Assembly (NCBI RefSeq): GCF_024521635.1
Contig: NW_026250409.1
Coordinates: 186,001 to 250,000 of the forward strand
Direction of reading: 5' to 3'
Source: Tricharina praecox
Taxonomy: Eukaryota
DNA: 64,000 nucleotides
The notes under the pieces were generated by a model that was not told the DNA's origin, made no database searches, and was given only the letters and a program-made list of their open reading frames with translations. This document shows, one piece after another, positions 2,247 through 64,000 of this stretch (position 1 is its first letter; each line of letters begins with the position of its first letter). The position numbers and the translations under genes are program-made.

Positions 2247-2976
2247 CAGGTACGGGTACGGGTACGGTATGTACATGTCCAACGTACCTAAGCATGTAGT
2301 TACATAGAGCACATAGAGGCAGACGAAGTCGTCCAACCGTTGCTGCGCAATTGCGTAACTGTGTATCGACCGGGGCGGTGGGCGGTATATCATACATGTT
2401 CTCACGTACATACACACATTAGGTACATACATTATGCAAGCAAGTACAAAGTACTTATCTGCGGCCTGCGGCCTGCGGGCAAAAAAAAGCAAAACAGCAA
2501 AACAGCAAGAGCAAAAGCAAAAACAGCTGTGGCAGCAAACGCCTTTTCTCGGTGATTTCCGTGATTCCACTGCGAGGGAACGCTGCGAGGGAAAAATTCC
2601 TTACAGTTTTGCAGGTGATCCAGGCCAATGTCCGGTACTACTATCTAAGGTAGGTAATTCAGATTTCTATGATATGTACTTGCTTACTTACTGATGGGCC
2701 TGCTCATGCACTTACCATGTATTACTAACCTCCCCGCCTCCGGCCCGGTAGGTAGACTCCATAAAGTATCAGTATCAGAGTATCAGTATCGGAATACCGG
2801 TATCGGACTACCGGTATCGGAGTATCGGAGTATCTGCATATCGAGATTCCACCTGACATAGCATGGCATGGCATAGCATGGCATGCAGGGTGCGGGGTGG
2901 CTTCGTTCATTCGTTGTCTGTTGTCCGTCCGGACGTCCGTTCAAACGAAACCAATTCCCGCAGAAACATAGCCAGC

Positions 2977-14438: not shown

Positions 14439-16216
14439 TCACATCATCATGCTGGACATCAGCGAGTTCTGCGCGTACGCCATGGGCTTGATGTTGGGAT
14501 GCGGGACGGCATCGAACACGTTGTGCTGCAGCTTGTAGTCTGGGCCGATGTTGATGTACGCACCCTTGTTGCCCGAGGTGTCGACGTAGTTGGGCGCCGA
14601 GAAGACTATTCCCACCTGTATTAGCTGCTGCCGTGGAAAGGAATGACTGGATAGGTAGTCTTACCAGTGATACACCGTCCATCGTGCTCGACCTCGTATC
14701 CCTCCATGCGAACCTCATGGGATCGGATAATAGCCTCCAGGCCATTACGCTCACAGAACCTCTTGGTGACATCCGGGCCAAACTGGAGTCCGACTCCACG
14801 CTTACTTGGCCCTCTGCCAGGCATGGTCTGGGGATCCGTCCAGAGCATTTCCATCATCAAACCCTCCTGCCCTGGCTGCCTCTGCTTATGTCTGTCCAAC
14901 GCCCGGACGTCATCCAGGGTAATCTCGTCATCCGAGAAGAGGCCTCCGTGCAGGACGAGGTACTTCGCGCCGATGAGGGTGGCGAGCGGGAGAGCGCTGA
15001 AGGACTCGGAGAAGAGTTTGAAGGTCCGCTCGTTGTACTTGGCCTTGCACTCGCCTTCGAAACCGTACACGCGGTTCATGTCGTCCGTTTCGTGGTTACC
15101 GCGGTTCAGGAAGAAGTTGGTTGGGTAGAGGAGCTTGTAGCTGTAGAGGAGCAGTGCGATCTCGGTCGACCATGAGCCGCGGTCTACGAAGTCGCCGTTG
15201 AAGAGGTATGCGTGTGTCTCGGAGGGGTAACCATTGCGGTTGAAGATCTCGAGGAGGTCGAAGTATTGTCCTTCGCCGCTGCGTCAGCTCATACCCACCA
15301 CACAACACATACAACCCAACACAAGTGACAGTACCATGAGTATCTCCGCAGACGGTCATCTTCTTTCCCTGCTCAATCGTAACCTCGGGCATAGTCGGCT
15401 CATTATAGAAGACCTCCTTCGCCTTGATGATGATCTGGTAGACGTATTTCCTGTGAAGCTTTTTACCATCTTTAAAGCGCTGGATCATGTCCTCGACGAA
15501 CTCCTTTGTCATCTCATTGCCCAGACGGACACCGTCGTAGTCCAGTTCCACCACTGGCCAGTTAGCCACACACACGTTCCCTCGAGCACACACGAAGAGC
15601 ACGAACCCATGGAGTTCAAATCCAGTCCTTCGGCTGCGGACGGCGGATCACCAACTTCAATTGCCTTCATGAAAGATATTTTGCGGACGATCTTCTCGCA
15701 CTCCTGCATCTTGAGTCTGGCATCCTTATCATGCGGCACTTTTCACCGTCAGCATCCGTCCCATCCCCCATCTCACACTCTCCAAGAGCCTCACCCTGTC
15801 TACACACCGCCCGGAAGTCCTTCAGCGCATCCGCGTACTTCATGACGGCCAAGTACGACACGGCACGGCGGTAGTAAGCCTTGATGTATTTAGGGTCGAG
15901 CTCGATAGCCTTGGATGCATCGGCAATCGCAAGGCCGAATTCCTCCAACTTGATGTGACTCTGCCAGATATAAGCACCCACCCACCACAGCCCGGGGAAG
16001 GGGAAGTAGGTACGTGAGCACGGTTGGAGTAGAATACAGCCACCGTGGGATCTAGCTCGATGGCTTTATCGTAGCAGTCAATTGCTTCCTGTCCGGGTTG
16101 TTAAGTCCGCGTCTCTCTCTTGCAGTGGGAGCAACGAAACATACCCGCCAGTCCTTCTTCGCGATAGCGGCATTTCCCTTGTTCTTCATCGCCACGGCAT
16201 CTTCAGCAGCCGACAT
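14439..16216 (-). CDS. PPT1: Serine/threonine protein phosphatase 5 (TPR + PPP domain)
   Basis: N-terminal TPRs ([23 protein letters not shown]); PPP motifs GDTHGQ, GDFVDRG, RGNHE, HGGLF and SAPNY; C-terminal KPMAYA. Confidence 0.95.
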
Positions 16217-23355: not shown

Positions 23356-24889
23356 ATGATCTCTGGCGTCCTCTTCTTCAATCAAAAGGGCGAGAATCTC
23401 ATCTTCCGGCAATTCCGCAACGACTGTCAGCCATTCCTCCCTCCTATTTCCTCCCCCGTCCATCCATCCCCCCTAGCTCACACACACCCCCCTCCCAGGC
23501 CGCCCGCGCCTCTCCGACGTCTTCCGCATCCAGGTGATCTCGAATGCGCAAGTGCGCTCGCCCATCCTCACACTCGGCTCAACCACCTTCTCGCACGTCA
23601 AGCACGAGAACATCTACCTCGTGGCCGTTACTAAGAGCAATGCCAATGCAGCGCTGGTGTTCGAGTTCCTGTACCGCCTCATCACGCTGGGGAAGAGCTA
23701 CTTTGGGAAGTTTGACGAGGAGGCGGTGAAAAATAATTTCGTGCTGATATATGAGCTTCTCGATGGTGAGTGCACCAGATTGGCGGATATGGAGGAGGAG
23801 GAGGAGCAAGAGGGGAGGGCTGACAGAGTGGATGACAGAGATCCTCGACTTCGGCTACCCCCAGAACACGGAAACCGACACGTTAAAAATGTACATCACG
23901 ACGGAGGGTGTGAAGTCCGAGCGGAACGTCGTTGAGGACTCGACCAAGATCACGATGCAAGCGACGGGAGCGCTCTCCTGGCGGCGCGCCGACGTCAAAT
24001 ACCGCAAGAACGAGGCGTTCGTGGACGTGATCGAGGACGTGAACCTGCTGATGTCGGCGGGCGGCACGGTGCTGCGCGCCGACGTCAGCGGCCAGATCGT
24101 AATGCGCGCGTACCTCTCCGGCACTCCGGAGTGCAAATTCGGGCTGAACGACCGGCTGCTGCTCGATGGCGGCGAGCCGCAGCAGGGCGGGAACAAGACG
24201 GGGAGCGTGGGCACGGCGAAGACAACCACCCGTGCGGCGGCCGGCTCCGTCACCCTCGAGGACTGCCAGTTCCACCAGTGCGTCAAGCTCGGGAAGTTCG
24301 ATACCGATCGGATCATCAGTTTTGTCCCGCCCGACGGAGAGTTCGAGCTCATGCGCTACCGCGCGACAGAGAACGTCAACCTCCCGTTCCGCGTCCACGC
24401 CATCGTCAACGAGATCGGAAAGACAAAGGTCGAGTACCAAGTTGCCATCCGCGCAAACTACGGGACGAAGCTCTTCGCTACCAACGTCGTCGTCCGCGTG
24501 CCTACCCCGCTCAACACCGCCGGCATCCAGACGCGCACTTCCCAGGGAAAGGCGAAGTACGAGCCGTCGGAGAACTACATAGTCTGGAAGTAATTCGTCC
24601 CCTTCTTCCTCCTCCTCATGCCCCCCCTTTTCACTCCAGCTAACATCACAGAATCCCCCGCTTCACCGGCCAATCCGAATACGTCCTCAGCGCGGACGCG
24701 ACACTGACCTCGATGACGAACCAGAAGGCATGGTCTCGACCACCACTAAACCTAAGCTTCAGCCTGTTGATGTTTACATCCTCGGGACTGCTCGTGCGGT
24801 ACCTAAAGGTGTTTGAGAAGAGCAACTATTCCTCCGTAAAGTGGGTGAGGTATATGACAAGAGCTGGGAGCTACGAAATCCGGTTCTAG
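23356..24889 (+). CDS. APM4: AP-2 adaptor complex mu subunit
   Basis: [76 protein letters not shown]. Confidence 0.95.
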
Positions 24890-25354: not shown

Positions 25355-26772
25355 CTATACGTCCTCGAAATCGACCTCCTCGTCACTATCCTCCTCTTTC
25401 ACCACCTCCACCTTCTTCTCCGGCTCCTCAGTCTTGACCCTCTTTCCGAGGGGCTGCTCATCCTCCTCGCTCTCACCATTATTGGCGGGGGTGCCAGTGG
25501 CCGTGGCGGCATTGGTGGCGGGAGCGCTGACAATATCCAGGTCCTCAAACTCCTCGTCCTCGTCCTCGTCGCCGTCGTCGCTGTCGTCGTCTTCCAGCTC
25601 GTCGGCCTCCTCCTGCGCCTTCTGGGCGGCCAGGGCGGCGTAGTATTGTGCGATTGCTTGGTGATGTTAGTAGGTGTAGCTCACTGGGAGAAAAAGGGAG
25701 AAGTGGTGGGTTCCTACCATCGCCGCCACTACCTTCCTCTTGCACGTCCCGCTTCTCCTCCGCCTCCGCCTCCTTGCGCGCAAGGCCAATGCCGTCGCGC
25801 TCCCGCGCCGCCCGCTCCCCGGCCTCCTTGATCCCCGCGTTCGTGATCTGGCCGGGAATAACAGTGCTCTGCGTGTGCCACACCGGCAGCGCGTTCTTCT
25901 CCGCCTGCTGCTGTTTCCTGAGCTGCTCCGCGCGCAGTTCATCGGCGGTCTTCTCGCTGGAGCTAGTGATCGAGATCTCAATAGCCTGCTGCTGTGCGGG
26001 CCGTCCAGCGCCGCCCTTGCCACCATTAACGGGGACGAACTGGGCACTTGACAGCGAGTTCTTATCGCGGGGTACGGGGACGGAGTTGGCAATGGCGTTG
26101 TCAAAGTCGTTCAGTGGGATCTGCACAGTGTCGACTTCGCGGAGGAAGCGCTCGATCTTCTCGATCTGTCTATTCATACGCTGGATCTTCTCGTGGCCCA
26201 GCTTAGTTTCCGTCGACTCCTCGTCGTCGACGAGCGCGTTGCTGCATCGGTCGCACAGGAATAGCCCCGCCTCGTCGAATTCCAGCGTGACTGCGTCTAA
26301 AAGCGCGAACCGCTTGCTGCAGTGCGGACATACGTACCCTTTCGTCTCTGCCCCGTTGTTGACGCTGCGACGTACTAGTTCGGCGAGCTTGTACACCCGG
26401 TACTTGATCCCGTCGATCGTGCTGCGGAACTCGATGTAGTAGTACGTTCGGTTGACCGGTCGCTGCTGCCCATCTTTCTGTTCGGGGCGCGAGTGACTGC
26501 CCCAACACCCAACAACCAGAGTCAGCCGCATAGCTAGCACGGAGGAGAGGGAGGGACGGGGAGGGGGGAACGTACACGGCTAGCATACGGTCCTCCTTAA
26601 GCTTTCCGCACAGCTTGTGGACGTCTTTGGTCACGAGGCCGAGAAGCTTCGCCAGCTCGTCGTCGCGCAGCGCGTTGTGGACCATTAGCGCATCGAGAAC
26701 GAGGATGTGGCGCGTGTCGTAGAACGCCCGGGCGACGGTCTTGACGAGGGATTTCGCTATGTCGAGGGACAT
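25355..26772 (-). CDS. TFA1: Transcription initiation factor TFIIE alpha subunit
   Basis: LVKTVARAFY winged-helix start; IDGIKYR; zinc ribbon CPHC...CDRC; NALPVWHTQSTV; acidic C-terminus ending DFEDV*. Confidence 0.93.
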
Positions 26773-27544
26773 CGTTGGTGTCGGCGTGGGGGGTGCAGGG
26801 TGGAGGGTGGAGGAGGATTGTAAATGGGGGAGATGGGGGAGGAGCGCTCTGGTAGGTGTTTTGAGTTGGACGTGAACGTGGAGAGCTGGAAGTCGATGTT
26901 TGAGGTGGAGGGGACGTGTAGAGTTGAGACACGCGCTTAAAGAGATGGCATCGAACTACTCTACAGAGCACACGTGTTCTGGCGATTGCTCAAACGTAGT
27001 CGCGCGAGAGTGAATCACACCTAGAGTGAATCAAGCCTCGAAGTGAATCAGAGCACGCTGAATCGCCCACCACCACCAAACTCAATCGAGATGAGAATTC
27101 TGTGCTATTCCTTAAGCCTCGAGTTCCGGCCCGCTTCCAAGTCCTAGCGCACTTCCGGTGCGATGCCAAAGAACTCAGGCTTAAGAACTTCCAAGTTTCA
27201 CCACTTCCACCATTGATGCCGCAAAACCGCAAAGGCACCCCAGATTCATGGTTCTGAGAAAAGGCCGTATGTATGCACATGTAGAGACCACCCTCTAAGA
27301 CTCTCCTCCTCAGCTTCCTCCCCAGCAACCGTTAAAACTATAAAACCACAAGGAAAGCTCAGTTCCTACCTACCGTGTTCCATCGTCGTGTGCAAGCATA
27401 ACAATCATAGCAATCAACACCTACCTCCTACCGACCTACGTAGCACACAATTCTCATCTCTCGCCTCTCACCTCGACTGGCTTTGGTGGTGGTGGTGATA
27501 GTAATGGTAGTGGTAGTGGTGGCAGACGATTCATCACGCTCCGA

Positions 27545-28286: not shown

Positions 28287-31200
28287 TTAAGCCTCCTCCT
28301 CCTCGACAAGGGTATTATCCGTAAGACTCTCGTTCGAGGCGTCGTCATCCATCGAAGCAATCGCCGCTGTCGCCGCTCGTGCGGCTGCCTGCGCACTCAC
28401 GACGTCTGCCAGTCGTCGCAGCTTTGGTGTCTGGAGGTATGAAGGGCAGTATGTCTCGAGAGCACCGATATGCCGAGGCTCGGGAATCTCGTATGGACCA
28501 CTGTCCTCCAGGTCGATGGCTTGGAGCAACAGTACGTCGTTGGTCTTCTCGGTAACTCGCGATGCTACCGCCTTCATGATCTCGCCGTTGATAGGCTGCT
28601 CATAGTCGGCGACGAGATATTGGTTCAGCAGCTTCTGGATTTGGTTGGGTGACAGCCTGTTTTTCTCATCAGTTTCGGTTCCAACTCCTATACCGCCCAC
28701 ACGCAGGGAATACTCACATCCAGCAGATATCCTGGATAATTTCGATATCGCTGAGAGTTGCCTTCTTGAGCTGAAGAAGCTTCGTCGCCTGCATGAGATG
28801 CTCGAGTTGCAAGATACCCTCGGGCATATCGTTACTCTTGCACCACTCCTCGATCCGGGTGATGTTGTAGTTGATCTGGAGACCACGCTTCCAAGACAAG
28901 AAGTTCCTCCGCAGCAAGAGATCGTTGAACGCGGTGACACCAACCAACTTAAGCAGCTCGGTGATAGCCTGCGTAACGATGCTGTCTTCCACGTAGTACG
29001 TTCTCATCGCCTTGTAGACCTTGTTGAGCAGACTCAACAGATCGTCCATGCTGAACTGGGGCTGAGAGTTCGTTTGCAACAGCTTGTTAAGGAATCGGTT
29101 ACCATCGTTGGTGACGAAGCCGGGAAGAGACTGCGATTCGATGATGGCGGGGATGATCATCTTCTGCAGCTTCTTCTTGAGCACCTTCATCCACGTGTGG
29201 TAGATGTTGAACTCCAGAGACTCCAGATCGTGCTTAACAACCTCTAGCAATCGGTCATAGGCGAAATCGTCCTTCTTCTGGATCTCATACCAGTCCTCCG
29301 CGAGGAATACGAACGACAGCATCTCGTGCACATTCGACAGCCAGAAGGCACCGTGCGTGATGGCATCCTCGTCGTGGTTGATCATCACCTCGTGCTGGAT
29401 GCTTTGCATGACGTTCGCCAGGAAGCGCTCAGATTCCTTGATGAAACCGTTGTTCCACATCTCCGACGTAACGACGTTGATGAGGAATGCCGGGAAGAGC
29501 ACCTCCTTGTACTGAATCGGAGTCGTCGAGTTGAGCGCCGGTACCTTCAGATTCTTGATCAACCCAATGGCAACCTCATCGCTGAGGTTCTCATCGTCTT
29601 CCAAGATCCGGAGCAGTTCCTCCTGGCTATTCTCGGCCGTCGGCACGAACGCCTCGAATTCCCGGGCGCGCGTGGGCATACTGGTGGGCATCATGGACAC
29701 CGGTCTAGTCTGGTACGACGACCGGTACATTCCATCCTGCTCCAGTCTGCGGGGAAGCTCCGCGCTTTGCCGCTTAGGCTTCTTGCTGGTGACAAAGTTG
29801 AGCAGACCGGTGGTGATTCCTCCGGACTTCTCGGGAACAGCCTCCTCCACCGGTGGGCCGGCGTGCTGTAGCTGGTCCTCGAGAGCCTGGATCTGCTGCC
29901 TCAGAGACAGCTTCTCCTCCTCGTGCATCTTGTCCCTGATCTTGAACTGATCGAGTTCGGATGTGCGCTGAGTGAGAGACTCCCGCAGCGACTTGCCCTC
30001 CTCCTGTAACCGCTTCATATTCGCGGTCGACTCATCGAACTGTTGCTGCAGCGCCTTCATCTCGTCGTCCATCTGCGCCAGCCTTGCGGCCGCGATACCA
30101 GCCTGGTTTGCCTCGAGTTGAAGCTCCTTGTTGCGGTTCTCCAAGTTGGCGTGCTTCATTCTCCAGCTCTTGACCTGGTTGTCGAAGCTCTCCACCTTGT
30201 CGACGAGAGCCTTGTTGTCCTTCTTCAGCATACCAACAGACTGGGTAAGCTCAATGACCTTGTTCTCCAGCTTGTAGGAAATCTGCTTGAGGTCACGGGC
30301 CTCTTCACGGATCTGCTTGTATTCCCGTCGAGCCATCTTACCCCGCCAGATACTCTGCAAATACACGACACGTTTCCGGTACTGTTGCCATGCGCGCAGG
30401 AACCGCCTAAACGGAGGGTTAGCATCACACTATTCCAAGACACCCGGTACCTCATACCTCGATCTCCATGCAGTCTGAATGTAGCGCGCAGCATTGCCAA
30501 GCACGCGATCGGTGATACTCTTACGGCAGAGGTATCCCTTTGCCGAAGCCTGCACCTTAATGACGCTGTTCCGGATGGTGTGGTAGTATTCGCGCTGCTT
30601 CGATCCGCGCCAGACTCTTTGAATGGTCGTGGCAGCCTTGACGATCCGCAGCTCTTGGGCACTTCTCCGGGCAAGGTAACCACGGGCATATGCCTGAGAC
30701 TTGAGGATGGCCGCGCGAGCCTCCAGGTACTTGCGGCGGTAGAACTTCTTCTTCAGGTTCTTCTGGATCAAGATGGCACATTCGTTCAACCGGCTAGTTC
30801 GCAGGTTCTCCAAGACCGCCAACTACATCACGAATTAGCGACTGTCCTTAGTGAGTGGGTCCAGCCATGAAGACATACCATTCCGGCGCGGAAAAAGATC
30901 TTCGACATTCCCAACTGGTACTTGTCCTTTCCGTCCTTCTGGTTCTCCTGGGGATGACCCTCCGGAGGCACAGTCCGTTTCAGGATCTTGAGGCCAACAT
31001 CCCTGATGGTTCCGGTCTTCAACTCGTCGGAGTGAATCAACATGTAGTATCGGCTCGCAAACTCCTCGTAGGTCCATCGGGTAGGGTATCCAGCGCAAGA
31101 GATCTTGACCGTCTCCAACACACCACAAGCCTGCAATTGACTGAGAACCATTGGTCCCTCGAACTTCCACGCCTCCTTGGCCTCGTTGGGCTTGATACAA

Positions 31201-33534
31201 CGGATGTAGTGGACATTGGTGGATCCGATGGTGTTCATCAGCTCGATCAAAGAGTGCTTGAAGATACCTCCCAGCGTCGGCTTGCGGTTCGACTGCAGGG
31301 CCAGCTTACGGCCGGGAGGAGGAACGGCAGTCTTTGATGCCACACCAGTTTCCTGATCATCACCGTTAGTTGTTGGGTGACCACGAGTCGGGAGGGAGCA
31401 AGTAATACCTTGTCTCGAAGGGACGCCGATGCTTGGAGCACAGTGGTGAGGAAGGGGTTGGTCGAAGCCCTCAACAGCTCCAGGTGCTCATCTGGTACGG
31501 TATCCCTGTTCTTCTCCACGAAGCCTTCGGAGTCGTACGTGACGTCCACCGCATAATGGCACACGGTGAACGACGACTTTCCGAACCTCGGTTGCTGGTA
31601 GGGGAACTCCTTTCCTTTGGTGCCGAAGTGCTGGTGAAGCTTGGTGATCAGGGAGTCGTCGGAGCCGGCGGGCAGCCTGGACTCTTCGTCCAACAGAGAC
31701 AGGATACCAAGCTTTCCCTCGATCAAATCGATACACGGTCTATTATCGGAAAACTCGATGTATTGCCAGTTAATCTGCTCGCGCGCATACTCCTCCTGCT
31801 CCAACTTGAAAACGTGCTGGTTGAACTCCTGTTGCAGCTTCTCGTTGGCATAGTTGATACAGAATTGCTCGAACGAATTGCGCTTGAAATGCTCGAAACC
31901 GTAGATATCCAAAACACCAATAAAAGACTGAACGTTTAACCGGACCTCTTCGGTAGCCAAGCTGTCGTTGATGATCTCGACGAGCCAGTCAAACAGCGAC
32001 GAGTAAATGAACTTGGCGATCGAGTCACGCACAACGATGGCCTGCTTCTGGGAAAGCGGGGTGACCGTCTTCTCGTTACGCATGACAAGTTGCTTCTTGG
32101 TTGTCCACTTCGCAAACTCATCCGCCTGGACTCCCAAAAGCTCGGCGGCACGGACAAGGTTAGGCTCGTCGGAGCCGAGGACGGACCCGTTACGGACGGC
32201 ACCAATCTCGCAGTTTCCAAGGTGCAAAAGCGCAGCCAGGACCTTCCAGATGAGCGCCTGGGTCTTCATCGTGACACCGATAGTCTGCAGCGAGTCTCTG
32301 GTGAGCTTGAACTCGGCCGCATCGTCCATGTTGGGGACATGGGGATCTCCGCCCTGGTTGGTAAAGTTGAACTCAGCCACAGGACGCAACCCAAGCTGGG
32401 TCCTCTCCTCATCTGTGGCTCCGGCGATCAATTGATAGAAGATATGATAGTTGCGCTCCGTCGCAGGCTGGAACACCAATCGGGCACGCTCGAGCAGGTA
32501 GGTTCTGATCTTGGCTCCGATGATGTCGATCTCCTTGTCGAACATGATCTCTATGTACTTTCCGAACCGCGAGGAGTTGTCATTACGGGTGGTCTTTGCG
32601 TTACCAAAAGCTTCCATGATGGGATTGGTCGCCAGAATCTGCTCTTCCGTCTTGCTCATGGCGGCGCCCTGGCCACCCTTCCGTCGCCTGCCAGGCCGGC
32701 TCGGATCCTCCACCGTAGCGAAGTACCTCATGATGTACTTGGCACTAACGGTCTTTCCGGCTCCGGACTCTCCAGACACGACGATGGTCTGGTTCTTCTG
32801 GTCACGCACCATCGCCTGGTAGGCGGTGTCTGCGATGGCGAACAGATGGGGATCTTGGTCCTCCTTCCGCTTGCCGGCATAGGCCTGGACAAGACCCGGG
32901 TCGTAGAGGAAGTCCATGCGATCGAAGGGATTGGTCGCAATGAGGACGATACCAGAGTACGTGTAGATTTCGCGTTTGGCATATCGAAGTTTGATAGCTT
33001 GAAGCACTGTATTTTGCGGAGAACGGAGCACGTCAGAAAAAAAAGCTCCAGCTAAACTAATGCGACGGGGGAGGTGACGAGAAGATTGAAAGCGGGAATG
33101 GGGGGAGGGTGTGGGGAAGTATTCGGGAGTTATGGATCGCAATACCGGCAGGTTCGTTCAAGTGGGATAAACTTGTCAAATCGTCCGAAGCCTCGAGCAC
33201 AGGTGGATTCATCAACGGTGGCAGATTCTTATCCTCGGCATTGCCTTCCAGCACGGCCAACGTTGTGGACTTCTCTAATTTCTACGGCGACGAAGAGTGG
33301 TCAGCGCATTGTTCCCGGATAGCCCAATGCTGCAACTCTCCCCCCCCCCTCCCCCCACACTCCTAATAGCAATCATCATTCACGAACCTCGCCTGTCCTC
33401 GAACCGGAGGTGATCTCGAACACCAAAGTCGCCTTATCCCCGTCGACGCTCTTGGAGAGGACTTTGGATGAAACCCATCCGTCCGTCGGGTCCTGGACCC
33501 ACGCCCCCGTCTCCACATTGTAGGTGTGTGCCAT
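28287..33534 (-). CDS. MYO2: Class V myosin heavy chain
   Basis: DDLTSLSHLNEP; P-loop GESGAGKT; NDNSSRFGK; DIYGFE; IQ motifs; coiled coil; C-terminal DIL domain (FNDLLLRRNFLSWKRGLQINYNITRIEEWCK). Start MAHTYNVETGAWVQDPTDGW. Confidence 0.97.
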
Positions 33535-36045: not shown

Positions 36046-37568
36046 TTAACTCTGCTTGCACTCAGCCGCCTCCTGCTTGGGTTTCGTGCCATCGTTCTGG
36101 TCATCGTTAGTATATTGGGTTTCTGGGTAGAATGCGGGATCACGTACGTCGTCATCGGACTCCTCCTCGTCGTCCTCTCTGTCGTCATCGCTGAGGTCCT
36201 CGTCATCGTCATCCTCGTCCTCGAAGTCGCCCTCCATGTCGGCACCCATTCCCTCGAACTGACGAGCCTCGCCAGTGAACCAGTCGATGGCACGGGGAAT
36301 GAGCTTCTCCTTGATGTCCTCACCAAGCTGGTAGTCGAGCTCCAGGCGGTCCTCGATGTCCTCTTGGTCCTCATCATCCTCGTCGAAGTCAGTCGGGGGC
36401 TTCGGGGGAGTGAAGAAGTTGAAGAACGATTCTGTGGGCACGGTGCGCTTAACAACGCGGGTCTGCTTGGTGTCTGCGGTTGCGATCGAAAATTAGCTGT
36501 AGCTCCCGGTATGAGAATCGCGGAGACACCTACTCTTGTTGCGCTGCTTCTTGCTCTCAATTCGGACAGTCAAGTCCTTGCCATCCTTCCAGTTAATCTT
36601 GTCGCCCTCGGCGTGGTCGTAGATGAAGTCACCGCCGTAACCGTTCTCGTCCTGGTAGTAATACGTCTTGGTGATCTCCTTGTTAGAGAAGAACTCGTTC
36701 TCGGAAAACACAAAGTGCAACCTGAAGCCAGGGGTGTCGAGGTAGCTCAGTCGGATGTCGGTGAGGTGCTTAAGAGCAGCCTCGTCGCGCTCGGTGATGG
36801 TCTCGGCCAAAAGGGCGTTGTTCTTCATGGCAGACAGCCAGAACTCGGGCACACCGTTCATGGCTTCGGTCGGCTCCTCCTTGTTATCGTCCTTCTCGTC
36901 ATCCTCATCCTCATCGTCCTGGTCCTCCTTACCAGCGACGACATCCTCTTCGGTAGGCTCCTCCTGGCCGTTCACGATCTTGGCACGCTTCTCGTAGAGG
37001 GGAGTGTACTTGGCGAAGTACTTCTTCTCGAGCTGGAGGACCTCCTCCTGGAATGCGGCCTCGAGCTTGGAGTGCTCCTTCTGCACACCTCGGAGACCAG
37101 CGATGCGGCGGCGCACGGGCGCAGGCAGGGACTCGATGTAACCGGACGAGCGACCAACTAGTTTACCGAGCTTTCCCTCAATCATGGAAACGAGCGCGGG
37201 GTTCGACGCAAAGATGGAAGCAGCGGTGGCGCGGTCGAGCTTCTCTATAATTGGAAGAGCAAGTTAGCAACCACCTCGAGGAGAAGACGCCCAGATATTT
37301 GCCGTAGCAGGTGGGGGTGTGGGGGATAGTTGACGGAATTCACAAACCTTCTTCGATGGTGGAGACATTAGGTTGCTGGGCGTGGGACGAGATAGGAGCG
37401 GCTGTGGAGGGTGTGTTTTGCGGGGTACTGGAGCAGCGATATCAGTACACATCCGACGACGCCGATAATGAGTGGTGTTTCGGTGGCGGCTCGAAGAGAT
37501 GAGGGAGATACTCACGGTGCTCCGGCCAAATGGTCGACCTTCTTATTCTTAATGGGCTGCTCAGACAT
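36046..37568 (-). CDS. NAP1: Nucleosome assembly protein 1
   Basis: [62 protein letters not shown]-terminal CKQS. Confidence 0.96.
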
Positions 37569-41887: not shown

Positions 41888-43132
41888 ATGCCGCAACTCG
41901 GCGATCTTCCCGATGAGCTCCAACTCGCAATCATCAAGTGTCTCCGGTCCCGCCGCAAGCAATCCCCAAAACATCACGCATTGGTCTCGCTGGCCGGGAC
42001 CAATCGAAGGTTCTACCACCTGACGAGGCCCTATGCGGATCCGGAGATCACCCTCGAGGAATCTGATTTCCACGACTATTTGGTCCATCTTGCCGGGGCG
42101 ACCAATCTTAATACCTTGACGATCAAGGCAAGACTGCCTCGACGCGATGAAGATCTCCAGACACTCGATGACGCCTGCAGTGTATTCGCCTCGGTGCCGA
42201 ATGTCGAGGTGATGTATCTGAAACTGGTGGTAAAACGCCAGTTCGACTGGTATCGACCTCAAAACCCCGATCCGTTGTTTACCTACGACTTTCTGGCGCA
42301 GCACTTCCAGCGGCTGGAGACCCTCGAGCTGCGCCAGGACGAGAAAAACACGAACATGGTCGTCGAGTTTTCACACGCCATTCCGCTGCTGGCACTACCG
42401 CGGCTTTCGGCCGTAACTCTCAAGCTCGTCGGCGGGGGCAAGCCCAAAGATGTTGACGAGCTGGTTTCCCAACTCGGCGGTCGGCCGAGCAACGTCCGCA
42501 GCCTCACGACGGGTCCTTCGAACCTGAGCGGCGAACTCCTCCGCGATCTCTTTTCGCGCGCGCTCACCCAGCTCGAACATCTGGACCTGGATCACCTAGA
42601 AGGCGTGTTCGTGGGCTCGTACTATAATGAGCAGATGAGAATCGGCCCCGCGCTGATGAGCGTCAAGGCGATGAAGCGGATCAAAATCTCGTACGCGATG
42701 AACAACATCGTGCCGCATAGGTGGCTCCAATCTAACGAGATCTCGTCCCTCGCCGACCACACGCTGCTGGAGTCGCTCACCATCCAGCCCGTCCTGCTGT
42801 ACGGCGTGGAAATCGACGCCCACAGTCCGGACCTGTCCCAACTTCTGCCACCGGGCCTCAAGCATCTCGATTTCTGCCGGACTGCGGGAGTAAGCGGTAA
42901 CTTCATCCTGGGGATTTACCGCAAACTGGTCGAGTTTGTCCAGTTGCGAGGTGTCGCTGCGGCAGGTGGCGCGTTGCTGTCGCTGCACGTCACTTTTGAG
43001 CTGGACTGGTCATTGGATCTTATTCAGGTGGCCGCAAAACGGGAACTCGCCGACACTTGCGAGCAATTTCAGGTCGAATTTCGTGATCATTCAAAACCTT
43101 TACATTGCTACACTTATGAGGCACAGTCTTGA
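41888..43132 (+). CDS. Intronless F-box-like protein with leucine-rich-repeat-like C-terminus (414 aa)
   Basis: N-terminal LGDLPDELQLAIIKCL...LVSLAGTNRRFYHLTRPY fits an F-box pattern; repeated LxxLxL motifs (LETLEL, LEHLDL, LESLTI, LKHLDF); GC-rich third codon positions. Confidence 0.75.
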   Translation: MPQLGDLPDELQLAIIKCLRSRRKQSPKHHALVSLAGTNRRFYHLTRPYADPEITLEESDFHDYLVHLAGATNLNTLTIKARLPRRDEDLQTLDDACSVFASVPNVEVMYLKLVVKRQFDWYRPQNPDPLFTYDFLAQHFQRLETLELRQDEKNTNMVVEFSHAIPLLALPRLSAVTLKLVGGGKPKDVDELVSQLGGRPSNVRSLTTGPSNLSGELLRDLFSRALTQLEHLDLDHLEGVFVGSYYNEQMRIGPALMSVKAMKRIKISYAMNNIVPHRWLQSNEISSLADHTLLESLTIQPVLLYGVEIDAHSPDLSQLLPPGLKHLDFCRTAGVSGNFILGIYRKLVEFVQLRGVAAAGGALLSLHVTFELDWSLDLIQVAAKRELADTCEQFQVEFRDHSKPLHCYTYEAQS

Positions 43133-43475: not shown

Positions 43476-44501
43476 CTAAAATCTGAAGAACTCCCCCCAC
43501 CTCCAGGTCTCAGGATACCTCCACCCAGCGTCATAATCCTCCAACCTCAACTCCTCCATTGACTTGCCACGATGTCTTTCGGAAGCACATATATTATGGT
43601 ACAAATGCTCCTGGTCAATACCACCCTCCCAAACTGTCATAAGATGGCCAGTGAAAAGAACGTCTGTTACCGGTCCGGCGTTAATGTTGGTCTTTGGTTG
43701 AAAAGTGAGTGGTGGAATAGTAACGATCGGCCCGCGGGATAAGCTACCAGTGACGGCTGTATTGGGCCATGTGGGAGCAGCCGTAGAAGCTGGAGGTGGT
43801 GTTGGTGCTGGTGGTGTTGGTGACGGTGGAACATGACATGTCGAAGCTGTTAATAGTGGCGCGGAAGCCGGTGGTGTTTCTGTAGCTGTTCCAGCGCTAA
43901 TCGTGGTCGTGGCGAAGAGGCTGGAGGATATCGGTTTGAAAAAATAAGACACACCGTCAAGGCTGTTGGGTAGGGCCGTAGTGGTGCTCGAAGCCGAGGG
44001 TTGGTGATCCGAAACCAGCGAGCTCCCGCTCCCGCTCGCGGGATGAGCTAAGGGTGGGGATGGTGTGGGAGCTCGTACTGTCACCAGGGATTTACTCATT
44101 GCACTTGTGATCGCACTCATTGCTTCCGTGGTGGTGGGAGACGCGGGCGTTGTTTGAAGCTCGGGAGATGCACTACCCGCAGGCCGGCTGATGGGGTCTG
44201 TTGGTGAAATATTTGAAGCCGAGGGCTGTGGACTCGAAAGCAACTCCAGCCCATCCTCCAACAGCCCTCCCAGCTCCTCCACCTCCATTCTCAGTTCATC
44301 CCACTGCCTACTCTGAGCCGCAACCCTCTCTATGAGCGCCGCAACACGTCGTCCGAGCGCTCTCTTGTCTGCGCGTAAGCGGCGGTTCTCGGCCTCTAGC
44401 GCCTGAAATCTTGTCGGTAGGCCGGAGGTGTGAGGTTCTTCGTCGTCCGAGGAGGGCGGGGAGGTGTGCCAGGGGTTATCGTAGACACCGGGGGTTGCCA
44501 T
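43476..44501 (-). CDS. Intronless coiled-coil / Ser-Thr-Pro-rich protein with C-terminal Nup98-type GLEBS-like motif (341 aa)
   Basis: Open 341-aa frame; heptad-like [29 protein letters not shown]; C-terminal [28 protein letters not shown]. Confidence 0.7.
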   Translation of the reverse strand: [341 protein letters not shown]

Positions 44502-45710
44502 TTCGACCGTGCGTGGAAGTCGCTGTGGAGTGCAAAGAGTGGGGTTGTGGAAATCCGAGGTGACGCGGGGATGGGCATCCCATGCCCATCGCGCCTACTC
44601 ATGGTGGTACGACAACGAGTAGCGATTCAGTCGTGTTCGCCGTAACGGTTTTAAGCACACACACTCCGTTTACTGACCCACGTCGGGCCGGGCACCTGCG
44701 GTGCATGTCGTGAAGGAAGCTGTCCTGCTAGGTATCAGCCATGATCTACCACGGTCGAATGCTACATATGATGATTCAACAAACAAAATCCATTTCCTGA
44801 CCCCGCTGGACACCGAAGGTCCCGGACCGACAGGGGTTTCCACTCTCCCCCATTATCCGCCGGCGTGTACTAGTAGACGACAAAAGCACGCAGAAGCAAC
44901 ACAAAAACAAATCACTCATTATCCGAAACATGCCCGCCACGGAAAATGGTTTCCCTTGACTGCCCAAAGAATAGGGGAACATCTGGGACCCCCGAGACAG
45001 CAAGTGATAATTCAGAAACGAGTACAGATGGCCATTCGGGGGGATGGATCTGACTTCGTACTCGGAGGTGCCGCGGCAAATTTTAGGACAGTGACCGGCT
45101 ACATGAGGGGGAACAACCTGGCAGCGGGAAGTAGAAAAAAGATAGAGTTGAAAATTAGGGAGAGATTCAAGCCGGCATGGAATCACAATGTGTGCTTGCA
45201 GGTAGTTGAATGAGGCAAGTTCAGGAGGGCGTCTAGCAGTGTACCATGAGGGTGTATGGACTGAGATAAGTACTCACTTGTGTATGATACTCTCTACTCC
45301 AGTGTTTTCAGATATACCCATAGTGCTGCCAATGTATTCGTCGAGAGAGAGATCTTCCTGTTTTATTTCGCATGCAGCCTATCTAGACTATGGCGAAAGA
45401 ATGTATTCGTTGAAAATGCGTCTCGTCTAAGCGGATAGCTGATATCGAGTGATAAATCGATATGCTAAAGCCTATCAACTAGCATCCCGACTTACAAGGC
45501 CCAGTTTGGTTCGCAGCTGCGGTTTGAATCTACCACCCAAAAAGTGAGCTGCAGTTTCGAACCGTCAACTTGCCCGAACGAGTGCCTGTTTGGCACACCA
45601 CCCCAATTTGACAACTCGAGAAACTGCAGATTGTCGACTGAGCCACAGTAAGTAAAAATAAACTCTATGGACAACCACCAGTAGTACATGCCAGTATCGC
45701 CCACGTAGGC

Positions 45711-46626: not shown

Positions 46627-48113
46627 ATGCTCGCCCTGAAACGTATCTCCTCCTCCGCTGGCGGCGCCGGTCTGCGCAGCTACTCTTCGTCGGGATACGC
46701 ATCTACCGCGAAGAACCTGAAGATCAACTCCAACACCAAGGTCATATATCAAGGTTTGTCCGTCTATCGGTCCCGCTTGCCGGAACCTTCGCGATGCTGC
46801 GAGAGAAGGAGACGAACCTTTACTGAGACATCTATGACCTACAGGATTCACCGGAAAGCAGGGATCGTACGTATATCGCCGCATTCACAAGAACGAGAGC
46901 ACCCACCGAGACGAGACGCAGGGGGAAGAGGGAGGACCGAGGCTGATGGGAATGGCCACATAGCTTTCACGCACAGCAGGCGATCGAGTATGGCACCAAG
47001 GTTGTCGGCGGTATCAACCCCAGAAAGGCTGGAACCATGCACCTCGACCGGCCCGTGTTCGGAACCGTCGCTGAGGCGGTGAGGGAGACCGGAGGTATGT
47101 CCTGGTGCCCCACCACCACCCCGCATGCGAGTGCGAACTGATTTGAGCTTTGCAACAGCCGATGCCAGGTATGGAATACACACTACACTATTCTCGCCGA
47201 GTATACGATGCGTAGGACGCTGACGCGAATTGAATCACAGTGCTATCTTCGTTCCCCCGTCGCTCGCTGCGGCATCAATAGAAGAGGCCATCGCCGCCGA
47301 GATTCCTCTGGTCGTTGCCATCACCGAGGGTATCCCGCAGCACGACATGGTCCGCGTCGTTGACATCCTCAAGACTCAGAGCAAGACCCGGTAGCTACGC
47401 ACCCGCTTGGCTCACTCCTGTCTACAATTTAATTGACAACTCATCGAATAGTCTTGTCGGCCCCAACTGCCCCGGAATCATTGTATGCCTACCCCCCTCA
47501 CGCGCTCGCCTCCATGTTTCGCGCTCATATCTAACACGATTTTCGTCCAGTCTCCAGGCCAGTGCAAGATCGGTATCATGCCCGGCATCATCCACAAGCG
47601 CGGCCGCATCGGTATCGTCTCGCGGTCCGGAACCCTCACCTACGAGGCCGTGAACCAGACCACCCAGGTCGGATTGGGCCAGAGTCTCGTCATCGGGTAT
47701 ATTCCCGCAGCTTTCTCCCCTCCACACCCTCACCGACTAACACACCTACTAGAATCGGCGGTGACCCCTTCGCCGGCACCAACTTCATCGACGCGCTCAC
47801 CGTATTCCTCGAGGACGAGGAGACCGACGGCATCATCATGATCGGCGAGATCGGAGGATCCGCGGAAGAGGACGCGGCCGACTTCCTGAAGCAGTACAAC
47901 ACCAAGGGCAAGCCGATCGTCAGCTTCATTGCCGGAATCTCGGCGCCCCCTGGGCGTCGCATGGGCCACGCCGGAGCCATCATCTCGGGAGGCAAGGGTG
48001 GCGCCGAGAGCAAGATCGCCGCGCTGGAGGCTGCTGGCGCTGTCGTCGAGAGGAGTCCTGCTGCCCTCGGAAAGACGCTGTACAACGAGTTTGTTAGACG
48101 GGATTTGTTGTAG
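46627..48113 (+). CDS. LSC1: Succinyl-CoA ligase alpha subunit, mitochondrial, 8 exons
   Basis: [53 protein letters not shown]; phospho-His motif [10 protein letters not shown]. Confidence 0.96.
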
Positions 48114-58630: not shown

Positions 58631-60247
58631 ATGATGAACAAGGTACCCCCTCCACGCCTGCTACATACCCCCATCTCCGTCTGCGTCTCCGATCCGCACA
58701 CCTCGCACGCAAATCAATCAATCAATCAATCAATCAATCAAGCACGATGCTAACCCGTCACCTCCACCTGCAGAAGCTAGGACGGTTCAAGCAATGGGCC
58801 GGCGAGCGCATGGGCGGCGAGGCGAAGACGTCCACGTCCGACGAGTTCAAGTCGTTGGAGATGGAGATGAACCTGCGGCAGGATGGTAGGAGCTCCCCCC
58901 TCGCCCCTCCCCCCTCCCCCTAGCTTCCGACCCGTGGTGAGAATGGGAATGGGAATGTCAATGCTGATTGATTGGGTTTGCCTACAGGGATGGACCGTCT
59001 CCACAGCACCATGAGCGTCTACATCAAGTCCATGTCGAAGCGGAAGGAGAGCGACGATAAAGAGAAGATGTTGCCGGTCGACGTGCTCGCCCAGGCTATG
59101 ATTGCTCATGGAGAGGAGTTTGAGCAGGATAGTTTGTTTGGCACTTGCCTTACCAGTATGTGACATCTGCCAGACGTGGTGTGTGGGTCGCGCTGACGGC
59201 GAGGACAGTGATGGGCCAGGCGAATGAGAAGGTGGCCAGAGTACAGGATTCCTACGTTCAGGCCGCGGGCGAGAGCTGGATGGAGTCGCTGGAGAGATCG
59301 TTGGCGCAGATGAAGGAGTACCAGGTATGTTCTGGAAGGGGAATAGCCACGGGAGGGTGGGTGCCGGAAGATCCTGGCTAACGTCGTGACAGGCGGCCAG
59401 GAGGAAGCTCGAGTCCCGGCGACTGGCCTACGATGCAACGCTATCCAAGATGCAGAAGCAGAAGAAGGAGGACTTCCGCATGGAGGAAGAGCTGCGGGCC
59501 CAGCGCATCAAGTACGAGGAGTCCAGCGACGACGTCTACCGCCGAATGGGAGAGATCCAAGATTCGGAGGCAGAGTCGATGGCGGATCTCGGTGCGTTCT
59601 TGGACGCCGAGCTCGAGTACCATGACCGCTGCAGAGATATCCTGGCGAATCTGAGACGGCAGTGGCCGGCTGGTCAACCGAAATCCAAGAACCGCTCCCG
59701 CTCGCTGACTGCCCACTCCTTCGGTAACGGCTCAAGGGAAGAGTCCCCCCCTCCGCCCATGCCGGAGCCCGAGCAGCGCCCTGCAATCGGGTCCCGCGTC
59801 AAGACGAGCGATCGCGGCTCATCGAACGGCGCTTTCCGCCTGCCCACCCCGGAGCGGGAGGACAAGGACAGAAAGCCGTCGTTCCACCGCACTCTAACGG
59901 CACCCACCTCTTCCTTCGAAGGCCCCACCACCTCCAACCGTCTGGCCCGCACGCGGTCCTCGGAACAGGCCGTTCTCCCTCCGCCGCTCCCCCGGAATCG
60001 TCCCTCGGTCCATGACGACGAGAACACCAGCCGAGACCGCTACGACCGCTACGACCGCTCCGAGTCTCCGGTAGCCTCCATAGCCTCCATAGGCTCCGGC
60101 TCGCGCGTCATCTCCAGATCCTCCAGCAACAACACCCTCTCGAACTCCTACAGCAACTCTGCTTCTGCGCGGAAACAGCCGCCGCCTCCGCCTCCTGCTG
60201 CCAGGAAGAAGCCGCCGCCACCGCCGCCGAAGAAGATTATGTCGTAA
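58631..60247 (+). CDS. N-BAR domain protein (endophilin-like BAR) with proline-rich tail, no SH3 seen
   Basis: MMNK-KLGRFKQWAGERMGGEAKTSTSDEFKSLE; YQ-AARRKLESRRLAYDA; LGAFLDAELEYH; tail RKQPPPPPPAARKKPPPPPPKK. The first coding exon is 12 nt. Confidence 0.85.
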
Positions 60248-60822: not shown

Positions 60823-63044
60823 TCAAGCCAACACCACCCCGCCCTCATCATCGTCGACCTTCCTGGCCGCCCTCCTCTTGCCCGCCTTGAAATGTTTCTT
60901 GCTGCCGCGCAGCTGCGCGACCTCGTCGGGATTGAGGTTCTCCTCGATCGCGACCATCGTCTTCGCCTTGCGGCCGCTGAGCACCTTTCCGCCGGCCGCG
61001 GCCGGCGGCGCCCGCATCACTCCGTCCTGCTGCCGGTGGAACGGGTTCGTCAGGTGCCCGCCCGCGCCGATCCCGCGCCCGAAGTACGCTTTGTCCAGCG
61101 ACTCGGTTTTGCGGCCCTCTGGCGGCGCGTAGGGGAGTGGGATCATGTCCTCGTCCAGCAGGTCGGCGTCTTCGGTGGTGGATTCTTCGACGATCGGGGC
61201 GGTGGACGTGGACGCGGGCATGCCACGGCGGCGGTGCTGCGGGAGATGCGCGATGTCGTACAGCCCGCGGTTGAATTCGGCGGAGTCGATTGGAGGGTCC
61301 GCAGGCGGCGCGTGCCCGAACAGCAGCTTGCCGTTGATGTAGTCCTTGAGCACGTAGCGGGCCGCGCGCGAGTCGTCCGGGTTGCCTGCGGACGACTTCA
61401 TGAACCCGCGGGCGCGCGCGTACGCCACGAGGAGCTCCGTGCCCGTCGGGACGCCCGTGCCGCCTTCTTCGAGCGGCCGCGTGATGATCTTGATTCCGTA
61501 CACGGCCTCGAGAAACCATTGCGGGATCCGCTGGGCGACGAGTGAGGCCGGACCCGTGAATTCGCGCTGCTGGTCGATCGGAAGGATTCCGTTGCATACT
61601 AGCTCCGCTTTGGTCGAGGCGAAGTTGGGGAAGACGAGTCCTGGGCAATCGCACAGGATTATTCGCTCGGAGAGGTGCAGAGTCTGGAAGTGCTTGGTCT
61701 TTCCCGGGGTCGACGAGACGGAGACTTTTTTGGCGCCCATGAGGGCGTTGATCGTGGAGGATTTTCCGACGTTGGGGTAGCCGACCAGGCCGATGGTCGT
61801 TTTCCGGGGCTTCGAGTCGGGCGATTCAGCTGGTCCAGATGTTAGCTGTCTGTTGGAATAGGTAGAGAAACAATGGAGGCATACAGTCTTGTTCCGGCTC
61901 GGGCGAGTTCTCAAGGAAGATGGCCTCTAGCTCATCGAGGTTGATGATGCGTATCCGGGGGTCCTCCTCATCCTCCTCCTCGTCTTCCTGTGCCGATCCG
62001 TCTTCCCCAAGCTTCAGCTTCGCAATCTCCTCCTCCGGGGCACCGTCCTTCTTCTCCGCCGTTTCCTCACCTTCCTCCTCCACGTCTTCAAACTCGCTCT
62101 CATACTCCTCCTCCTCTTGTGCCTCGAGACTCTCTCTTGCCAGGACAGCCGAGAAGAACCGGAAGCTGACACCCTCACTCTCAAAGTAGTCCGCCCAAGC
62201 CGTCCTCTGCTCAACCGTCATCATATCCGCCTTATTCACCAGCAGCAAATTCCGCTTTTTGGGGTCCACCTCCTGCACGTACTTCTCAAGATCGACACAG
62301 CGGAACAGCAGGGGATTTCTGGCATCGACGATCTGCACGACGAGATCGGAGCGCTCGATGACACGCCACAGCTGGCGCCACACCTCGAGATTCCGCTCGA
62401 ACGGGGTCATGAGCATATCAAAGTTCTCCTGGAGCTCGGCGAGGCCGCGTCGCCACGACAGAAACGACTCGCGCTCCATCTGGTCCAGCTCCTGCGGTGT
62501 GGTCTGCGCACTCCATTTTGGTCGTCGAGGGACCGTCAGCTGCTGTGAGTGCTGCGCGTGCTTGCGGTGCGTCTTGCGCTCTTGGTCCGGCGTGAGCAGG
62601 TACGGGTTGTATTGGTCTTTGTGCACTACTTGTACGTTGCTCATCTTCTCCGCTGTAAAGTCGGTATCGGCCATTTCGGCGGTCGCCAGAAACTCTGTAG
62701 TATTGTTGTCAGCACTCGAGCGCTGTCTGGAGCAGTGAGGGAGGTCAAACCGTCAAGGTCATTCTGCTCGGTGATACTGCGGATCTTGACCCAATCCGCC
62801 TCTTTTCTTTCCGGTCCAAACGACTGTAGATAGCGAGAAACGAGTCAGAAACTGGGCAATCTCTCTTCTCGACAAAGCGCAGGGAATACCATACCATCTC
62901 CACAGGTCCCTTGTGTCCGCCGCGCCCGCGACCACCTCCTCCGCGGCCGCCACCACCGCCACGGGTTACCCTCGTTCCTCCACCTCGCGAGTTCATCAGG
63001 GCCCGGCCAAGGCCGACTCTGTTCTTGCTATCGGCAAGCACCAT
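60823..63044 (-). CDS. LSG1: Large-subunit GTPase 1 (cytoplasmic 60S maturation)
   Basis: MVLADSKNRVGLGRALMN; SITEQNDLD-EFLATAE; TPFERNLEVWRQLWRVIERSD; NKAD; GYPNVGKSS; TPGKTKHFQT; DCPGLVFP (circularly permuted GTPase). Confidence 0.96.
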
Positions 63045-63481
63045 GATTGACTATCTGTCTGTGCTGGGTATTCGGTTTTCCGGACAAAGATACGTTCTGT
63101 TGCTATTGTAAATAAAGCTGGGGTTGAGTTGGGGATCGGTGGTGGGACGTAATATATGTGGGGTCAAGTCGCAGTTTACTTCTTCTCCTCCATGCTAGAG
63201 TGGCGGGGTGGAGTGAGTCGAGTTGAGTTGTGTGTGACGACCACACCGCCGAAACTTTTCTTTTCTACCCTTTTTCTTTTTGCCCCGCTATTTGATTACC
63301 ATAACCATAACCAACCCCACCAACACCACAACCACAACCACCCTTCAACTGAACTGAGCATTCTCTTTTGTCAGCAACTTCTCTCTCTCAGGACAGGATA
63401 GAACGGCAATTCGCGAGATCGCCCCCCAGACAGACAGTACAGTACACAGGAACGGGACAAACAAACAACCAACCACACAAC

Positions 63482-64000
63482 ATGGCGCCTCCTACCGCCA
63501 CCACGAAAAAGTGGATGTAAGCTCTTCGCACTCCTTCCCCGTACCGTAGCCACAGGCTTACTGACACAATGCCACAGCGACAAGAAAAACGCGAGCACCT
63601 TCCAAGTGCGCTACCGCTCACAAGAAGACCCATTGATCCACGACGACACCGCGACGCCCTTCGTTCTGCACGAGGTCGATGCGCCGAACGCGAACAAGGG
63701 CTCTAGCGGCGCCAGCGGCTCCTCCTCCAGCAAAGTCAAGAGCGCATACGACCTCGCGGCGGAGCTCGGCATCGATGCTTCCACGGTGCGCGCGAACGAG
63801 GGCGAGGCGGCGATGCACGGCATCTACTACGACGACACGACGTACGACTACATGCAGCACATGCGGGACATTGGGGGGAGTGCGGGGGAGGCGATCTTTA
63901 TCGACGCGGCGCAGGCGGGGAGTAAGCAGCGCAAGGACAAGAAGAAGCATAACAAGCAGTCGCTCGACCAGGCGATCATGATGGAGGTCGAGCCGAAGAG
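63482..64000 (+). CDS. LTV1: Low temperature viability protein Ltv1 (40S biogenesis), 5' partial
   Basis: KKWI-DKKNASTFQVRYRSQEDPLIHD; NEGEAAMHGIYYDDTTYDYMQHMRDIG. Runs off the window end. Confidence 0.9.

Follow-up and report, generated by a model that had tools for sequence, protein, structure and literature searches.

We analysed a 64,000-nucleotide stretch of genomic DNA from the fungus Tricharina praecox (contig NW_026250409.1, positions 186,001 to 250,000 of the forward strand; this whole stretch is hereafter called the window). An open reading frame (ORF) on its reverse strand, at 43476..44501, encodes a protein of 341 amino acids whose C-terminus resembles the GLEBS motif, the segment by which nucleoporins of the Nup98 type bind Gle2/Rae1. 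Judged from its sequence, this ORF is a real, lineage-restricted and uncharacterised fungal carrier of the motif. The features of the locus are as follows:

43476..44501, reverse strand: the whole coding sequence, 341 codons and a stop (TAG at 43476-43478)
44502..44524, reverse strand: a possible 5' untranslated leader, a weak hint from the contig ends of three studies
44469..44483, reverse strand: an N-terminal element, Y-D-N-P-W (residues 7-11)
44235..44420, reverse strand: a predicted leucine zipper (residues 28-89), from the AlphaFold2 helix, the heptads and the homodimer model
43620..44234, reverse strand: a linker rich in Ser, Thr, Pro and Ala and predicted to be disordered (residues 90-294; pLDDT mostly below 50, no Pfam match)
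43512..43619, reverse strand: the GLEBS core (residues 295-330), from a nucleoporin-only profile and the alignment with human Nup98
43551..43556, reverse strand: the codons of E316 and E317, equivalent to human Nup98 E201/E202 in the alignment to PDB chain 7r5j_U0
43479..43511, reverse strand: a C-terminal tail (residues 331-341), resembling that of another T. praecox protein, P0013 (PEMKWRYGK)

The reading frame is intact from the first ATG to the stop codon, just as a preliminary description of this DNA had proposed. Contigs assembled from three other studies cover it with no difference (X2) or a single one (X3 and X4), and all of them cross the ORF without gaps or joints; this agrees with the earlier view that the gene is intronless, although for these runs RNA is only a guess. 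When a soil-metagenome DNA run that contains a related strain (X5) is added, the 341-codon frame is unbroken in four other data sets. Near the ATG, the X2 contig ends at 44519, that of X3 at 44524, where 14 letters of sequencing adapter follow, and that of X4 at 44485; X5 extends upstream past all of these ends. The X2 and X3 ends, 18-23 bases upstream of the ATG, give a weak hint of a transcript start, weak because RNA is only guessed for both runs.

The C-terminal segment named in the preliminary description is present, and residues S314-Y323 are encoded at 43533-43562, where it had placed them. A Pfam scan of the protein at E<=10 returned four families only, namely Nup98_GLEBS (PF21240) and three coiled-coil families. 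For a nucleoporin-only profile, 18 GLEBS segments were taken from those 16 of the listed proteins in which the Nup98 autopeptidase domain also occurs. Against this profile the ORF protein scored 32.7 bits, with residues 295-330 aligned to profile positions 26-61, while shuffling its last 101 residues 2000 times gave at most 2.0 bits. In a six-frame translation of the window the ORF was the sole match to a GLEBS profile (E=5e-9, the next being 0.12). When the last 101 residues were compared with PDB sequences (phmmer, E<=10), seven of the eight distinct matches were Nup98 GLEBS chains, the best of which was 3mmy_B (E=0.022). The same residues retrieved 22 proteins at E<=0.001, the ORF protein itself included, from 1.84 billion representatives. 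Among the 21 others, 17 carry PF21240 at E<=0.01, and in P0013 the motif can be recognised both by eye and by the nucleoporin-only profile. Three further matches (P0005, P0014 and P0020) are bacterial-type repeat proteins that matched other parts of the query and contain no GLEBS; these were set aside. The likeness of the ORF C-terminus to GLEBS is far beyond chance.

The matched stretch, profile positions 26-61, corresponds to human Nup98 residues from about 180 to 215, and the PDB alignment places it at 186-216. Ten of the 12 best-conserved core positions are kept (I304, S314, E316, E317, L318, R319, L320, D322, Y323 and G326). The glutamate pair is invariant in the 17 nucleoporin and the 101 non-nucleoporin motif copies, which were partly selected on this feature; the conservation table is in part circular, because the copies were found through their likeness to the motif. 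No polymorphism was seen in the GLEBS core among the compared contigs. Upstream of the core, F283 is spaced like the Phe of the fungal Nup145 'PFQ', a resemblance noted by eye that is not significant. Downstream, the post-motif tail G-W-R-Y echoes the G-R-R-Y that ends the Pezizomycotina Nup145 motif. This shared G-x-R-Y ending points to descent of the ORF motif from the Nup98/Nup145N pore motif rather than to convergence.

Apart from the motif, the protein does not look like a nucleoporin, and in this respect too the preliminary description holds. It contains no FG dipeptide, and neither the FG-repeat family PF13634 nor the autoproteolytic domain PF04096 matched at E<=10. Mad3/BUB1 homology region 2, which we take to be the Pfam name for the GLEBS of the Bub1/Mad3 type, is likewise absent from the Pfam matches at this threshold, and the significant relatives are carriers of PF21240, so the assignment of the motif to the Nup98 type stands. 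The possibility raised earlier that the ORF might be a decayed copy of NUP98 is unlikely, because nothing outside the motif resembles Nup98; the few polymorphisms seen are nonetheless consistent with neutrality.

The N-terminal coiled coil foreseen in the preliminary description was found as a helix with regular heptads. AlphaFold2, run without an alignment, modelled residues 28-89 as a single long helix (block pLDDT 90-95), with low confidence elsewhere (mean pLDDT 50.9). The heptad d positions are L28, L35, L42, L49, L56, Q63, L70 and L77, i.e. leucine in this list at all but Q63 (our zipper summary counts leucine at six of the eight), and the a positions are F32, N39, K46, V53, V60, W67, V74 and L81. 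A two-copy model of residues 20-95 reached a median score of 0.36, compared with 0.00 for the best of three controls, and thereby attained the mark for a homodimer, which in calibration was attained by 21 of 30 solved homodimers and none of 23 solved monomers (17 of 29 and none of 30, respectively, for eukaryotic proteins). At least 95% of the contacts agreed between runs, with a partner pLDDT of at least 78. The contacts of lowest error were same-residue pairs (39:39, 42:42, 49:49, 53:53 and 56:56), hence the modelled dimer is parallel and in register. The models support the view that residues 28-89 form a parallel dimeric leucine zipper, and because this homodimer passed the complex test, 'oligomeric', the word chosen in the preliminary description, seems reasonable. 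The three coiled-coil Pfam matches on the helix (Wtap, JIP_LZII and ZapB, E 0.19-0.28) were discarded as generic coiled-coil noise.

The long linker rich in Ser, Thr and Pro was also described correctly: residues 90-294 are disordered in the model, and Pro, Ser and Thr make up 120 of the 341 residues of the protein. Within the linker, an ACC/CCA-rich low-complexity stretch that codes for Pro and Thr (43789-43829) attracted parts of numerous unrelated contigs from each of the four runs, which produced a depth spike with many loose ends.

The nearest counterparts in layout are two proteins of Pyronema omphalodes, BZA77DRAFT_384731 (P0015) and the CBS 100304 'Protein of unknown function' (P0026), which have the same order of elements as the ORF protein: x-NPW at residues 8-12 comes first, then a coiled coil and a linker rich in Pro, and last a terminal GLEBS that ends in GWRY. 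They differ from it in having two motifs and a long acidic insert. Besides the ORF protein and these two, none of the 132 stored proteins has NPW at residue 9 or 10. BLASTP aligned the ORF protein with Pyronemataceae proteins at 38-48% identity over about 40-90 residues; with P0015 and P0026 it sees the motif only, and homology outside the motif is without statistical support. The T. praecox protein BZA05DRAFT_422997 (P0013) has a post-motif tail like that of the ORF protein, and BZA05DRAFT_447638 (P0081) is a further Pyronemataceae relative. A tail of the form G-[WY]-[RK]-[YF] at or near the C-terminus is found in eight of the 132 stored proteins, the named ones belonging to Pyronemataceae and to one lichen fungus. 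Among the matches listed, this subgroup is, as far as sequence goes, the closest to the ORF protein.

Beyond this subgroup, a profile of nine motif copies matched 418 longer proteins at E<=0.001 among 8000 scored candidates, and the domain make-up of the carriers was taken from the 120 of these matches that were listed. The autopeptidase domain, which marks the true Nup98 family, is present in 16 of the 120; most of the others have no pore domain, and more than 30 of those listed are named fungal 'hypothetical proteins' without one. The carriers include proteins of Pezizales (Pyronema omphalodes and Tricharina praecox), of lichen-forming Teloschistales (Xanthoria, Flavoplaca and Calogaya) and of many Agaricomycetes. 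BTB-domain carriers occur in Pyricularia oryzae and Chlorociboria, and a dynamin-like carrier in Penicillium hordei, while in unnamed database proteins the motif is accompanied by RING, ankyrin, kinase, PARP or TRAF-type domains; many short carrier entries, which may be fragments, derive from contigs 1-2 kb long. The nucleoporin-only profile found at least one motif in 129 of the 132 stored proteins. The non-pore carriers mostly have two or three motifs, and many of them, like the ORF protein, have the C-terminal half only. The caution in the preliminary description that uncharacterised GLEBS-bearing fungal hypothetical proteins might already be in databases proved true, and in large numbers.

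In metagenome contigs, a motif alignment gave 154 relatives in 362 stretches, the best 80 of the 154 being short motif-level matches of 33-84% identity; one of these contigs (L001) encodes P0003. The ESM Atlas contained nothing usable (best feature score 0.82, best TM 0.29).

Several carriers deserve mention in their own right. P0004, P0023, P0042 and P0045 have two or three tandem full-length GLEBS of the Pezizomycotina Nup145 type, including the N-terminal arm CQGTGSVPFQPY, and no precomputed FG-repeat or autopeptidase match; P0023 has an extra N-terminal PF27634. In P0100 (Pyricularia oryzae) and P0092 (Chlorociboria aeruginascens), a BTB domain is combined with one strong GLEBS (44 and 62 bits, respectively, with the nucleoporin-only profile), which suggests that these proteins could be Cul3 adaptors recruiting Gle2. 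RING domains accompany GLEBS in P0006, P0012, P0021 and P0050. P0054, P0068 and similar Agaricomycete proteins of about 190-360 amino acids contain three degenerate motifs, an N-terminal GKSFEEVRI followed by two fuller copies, and close with ...LF; apparently they are a distinct family of GLEBS proteins without pore domains, widespread among basidiomycetes. Finally, metagenome contig L014, from the same metagenome series as the contig of P0003, encodes at 2336-2647 (forward strand) a terminal exon with a variant of the GW tail KIYQNIGFMLEHRDMSMEELRLADYDRGWVFGK.

From these results, a hypothesis regarding the function of the protein may be put forward, one that we hold to be somewhat better supported than its competitors taken together: the ORF would encode a lineage-restricted dimeric zipper protein with a GLEBS core derived from Nup98/Nup145N, likely to bind Gle2/Rae1 away from the nuclear pore. 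Each chain would consist of the zipper, a disordered linker of about 200 residues and the C-terminal GLEBS core, which would run over the top face of the beta-propeller formed by Gle2/Rae1, where E316 and E317 would pair with the two conserved arginines of Gle2. The motif would compete with the Nup145N GLEBS of the pore for the same site on Gle2, and a dimer carrying two such competing motifs could thus keep as many as two Gle2 molecules away from the pore. The outcome might be that of a buffer or decoy, which sequesters Gle2, of an adaptor, which delivers it to another site, or of a chaperone that stabilises it in the way that BuGZ does for Bub3. A decoy or adaptor role, as proposed in the preliminary description, is plausible. 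The analysis itself shows the ORF, the zipper, the motif with its nucleoporin ancestry and the wider family of carriers; that the protein binds Gle2, that it competes with the pore and that export or mitosis is affected in any way is what we infer.

Published work on the pore motif offers a basis for these steps. According to the accessible part of PMC3783196, where the paper on the 3MMY structure is cited, the human glutamates E201/E202 form two conserved salt bridges to Rae1 R216 and R172, and mutation of the yeast counterparts (Nup116 E154/E155 and Gle2 R168/R212) disrupts the complex. In the portion of PMC2133102 at hand, NUP98(181-224) suffices to co-precipitate RAE1, and helix-breaking prolines placed in this segment abolish the binding. 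As the ORF match falls on this segment, the ORF protein would retain the minimal binding region. The same excerpt reports that overexpression of NUP98 150-224 or 181-224 lowers the amount of RAE1 at the nuclear envelope and makes poly(A) RNA accumulate in the nucleus, which extra RAE1 reverses. These free fragments are detached from the pore as the ORF motif is, and titrate RAE1 off the envelope with a block of poly(A) RNA export (PMC2133102, in part); they differ from the ORF protein in being artificial, monomeric and expressed in human cells. With the GLEBS of Nup98, Nup116 and Nup145N (PF21240; PDB 3MMY) the ORF motif has in common the core and both salt-bridge glutamates. It differs from them in lying outside FG repeats, in a protein with no autoproteolytic domain, at the extreme C-terminus of a leucine-zipper protein.

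The alternative that survives best is a young, fast-evolving or effectively neutral gene, in which a captured or copied fragment of the pore gene still resembles a GLEBS and whose protein has no selected function related to Gle2. We consider it unlikely, though well short of negligible, and a number of observations weigh in its favour or otherwise count against a dimeric Gle2-binding protein. In the related strain (X5), eight coding differences were found over about 879 of the 1023 bases, six replacements (H24P, S185P, Y186S, G252S, M288T and G294D, three of which rest on a contig of depth 3.4) and two silent changes, and this ratio equals the neutral expectation from 765 to 258 sites. By codon score the ORF frame ranks first among the six, yet the score is weak (-4.25, compared with -3.7 to -4.0 in neighbouring housekeeping exons), and the third-position GC content (GC3) is 0.53, compared with 0.62-0.86 in neighbouring genes. 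No orthologue was detected outside the motif: word-indexed homologue searches, both with the whole protein and with residues 262-341 (3 candidates), returned only the ORF protein itself, and a whole-protein search of metagenome contigs gave 416 pattern matches and no relatives. Since the locus is an orphan in which purifying selection is not clearly apparent, the ORF may be one of the less constrained carriers.

The motif and the zipper contribute to this side of the balance as well. The preliminary description had proposed a scan with a GLEBS profile, and the answer was divided: PF21240 matched at E=0.0014 with 19.1 bits, below its cut-off of 27 bits and only over residues 309-323 (profile positions 25-39 of 39), and the nucleoporin-only profile gave the 32.7 bits reported above. 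His310 occupies the column of human Y195, where all 17 copies from nucleoporins and 92% of 100 copies from other proteins have Tyr, and Ser307 replaces the usual Met (human M192); moreover, the N-terminal arm of the 57-residue hairpin was undetected, profile positions 1-25 being unaligned. By these three traits the ORF motif also differs from the GLEBS of Nup98, Nup116 and Nup145N. When coiled coils pass the complex test, their resemblance to zippers of known structure may be the cause.

Set against neutrality are the intact frame in the four other data sets and a zipper of eight nearly perfect heptads. Of the six replacements, five lie in the linker; the 62 codons of the zipper and the 36 of the GLEBS core, together about one third of the covered codons, have none. 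The chance of this is about 0.09, so that the distribution is weak evidence, suggestive only given so few changes. The same order of elements recurs in Pyronema proteins that are less than 50% identical to the ORF protein even in the motif. As for the undetected arm, about one third of the 101 non-pore copies reach it, and about two thirds are likewise without it and yet keep the same conserved columns.

It is improbable that the motif binds Bub3 instead of Gle2, in which case the protein would assist the spindle-checkpoint propeller as a partner or chaperone, much as BuGZ does. The propellers Rae1 and Bub3 are homologues, each of them bound by GLEBS motifs (PMC2172680, as far as its accessible text goes); there is also a precedent in BuGZ (ZNF207), which like the ORF protein is neither a nucleoporin nor a kinase and whose GLEBS recruits a propeller of the Rae1 family, and which binds and stabilises Bub3 (PMC4602037, in the part available). 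Compared by description, BuGZ differs from the ORF protein in its partner, in having zinc fingers instead of a zipper and in being widely conserved. The GLEBS of Bub1, BubR1 and Mad3 is likewise a short propeller-binding motif with a glutamate pair (PMC2172680, in part), but belongs to another sequence family and binds Bub3, that of Bub1 binding Rae1 too. The available text of PMC2172680, citing Wang et al. 2001, reports that Bub3 binds checkpoint-type GLEBS only and that Rae1 binds Nup98. Since the ORF motif is of the Nup98 type, with its profile matched, no Bub1/Mad3 family in Pfam at E<=10 and a G-W-R-Y tail that resembles that of the fungal Nup145 motif, we favour Gle2 over Bub3 as the partner.

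That the similarity arose by chance, in a stretch that is non-coding or wrongly called as an ORF, is strongly disfavoured and very improbable. In its favour are a Pfam score below threshold and the orphan status of the protein over its whole length. Against it stand a score of 32.7 bits where 2000 shuffles gave at most 2.0, the retrieval of almost nothing but GLEBS carriers from 1.84 billion proteins, the codon score, which favours the ORF frame over the other five, and the lack of a competing long ORF on the opposite strand.

The GLEBS ORF lies in a region of the window (1-64000) otherwise made up of ordinary fungal housekeeping genes:

3953-5684: PPPDE-thioredoxin-PUL protein
7118-8598: GDA1/CD39
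10041-13286: Vps41
14624-15647: PP5 phosphatase
23748-24590: AP-complex mu subunit
26206-26955: TFIIE alpha
28717-33157: class V myosin
36496-37263: NAP1
47535-48110: CoA-ligase
59390-60244: BAR-domain protein
60826-61926: GTPase
63402-63998: Ltv1

Several ORFs between 38 and 46 kb have no Pfam match. The convergent neighbour of the GLEBS ORF, at 41888-43132 on the forward strand, is a 414-amino-acid ORF starting MPQLGDLPDELQLAIIKCL, 343 bases from the stop codon of the GLEBS ORF; its F-box-like match stays below threshold (E=0.0098, 16.1 bits compared with 24.3), and the X2 contig spans both ORFs. Pfam detected no WD40 protein in the 84 frames scanned of the 182 stop-to-stop frames of at least 110 codons in the window, so Gle2 or Bub3 is not encoded nearby.

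In the usual description, a single motif of a single nucleoporin tethers Gle2/Rae1 to the pore. The carriers collected here, namely leucine-zipper, BTB, RING, ankyrin, kinase and dynamin-like proteins together with small proteins of two or three motifs in Agaricomycetes and lichen fungi, allow a broader and more doubtful proposal, which we regard as possible but would not bet on: the Nup98-type GLEBS may be a portable module for recruiting Gle2/Rae1 that has repeatedly moved onto non-pore proteins in fungi and other eukaryotes, the carriers together forming a layer, so far unrecognised, by which the export factor is sequestered, relocated or degraded, and the ORF protein may be a bivalent off-pore trap for Gle2 that tunes mRNA export or mitotic pore behaviour. 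The motif and its partner are textbook knowledge, and the carriers are already public as hypothetical proteins, many with PF21240 precomputed. In the full-text literature, a search from which most subscription journals fell outside, no study of natural pore-free GLEBS carriers with the architecture of the ORF protein was found; the mentions of 'GLEBS-like' in PMC11071493 and PMC13189347 are entries in reference lists only. The one precedent for a pore-free GLEBS is artificial, a fragment whose overexpression in human cells blocks the export of poly(A) RNA (PMC2133102, in part). If the proposal is true, a natural dimeric and pore-free carrier would give direct access to the way in which the free pool of Gle2/Rae1 is set in cells. 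The pattern across the family may matter more than this one locus.

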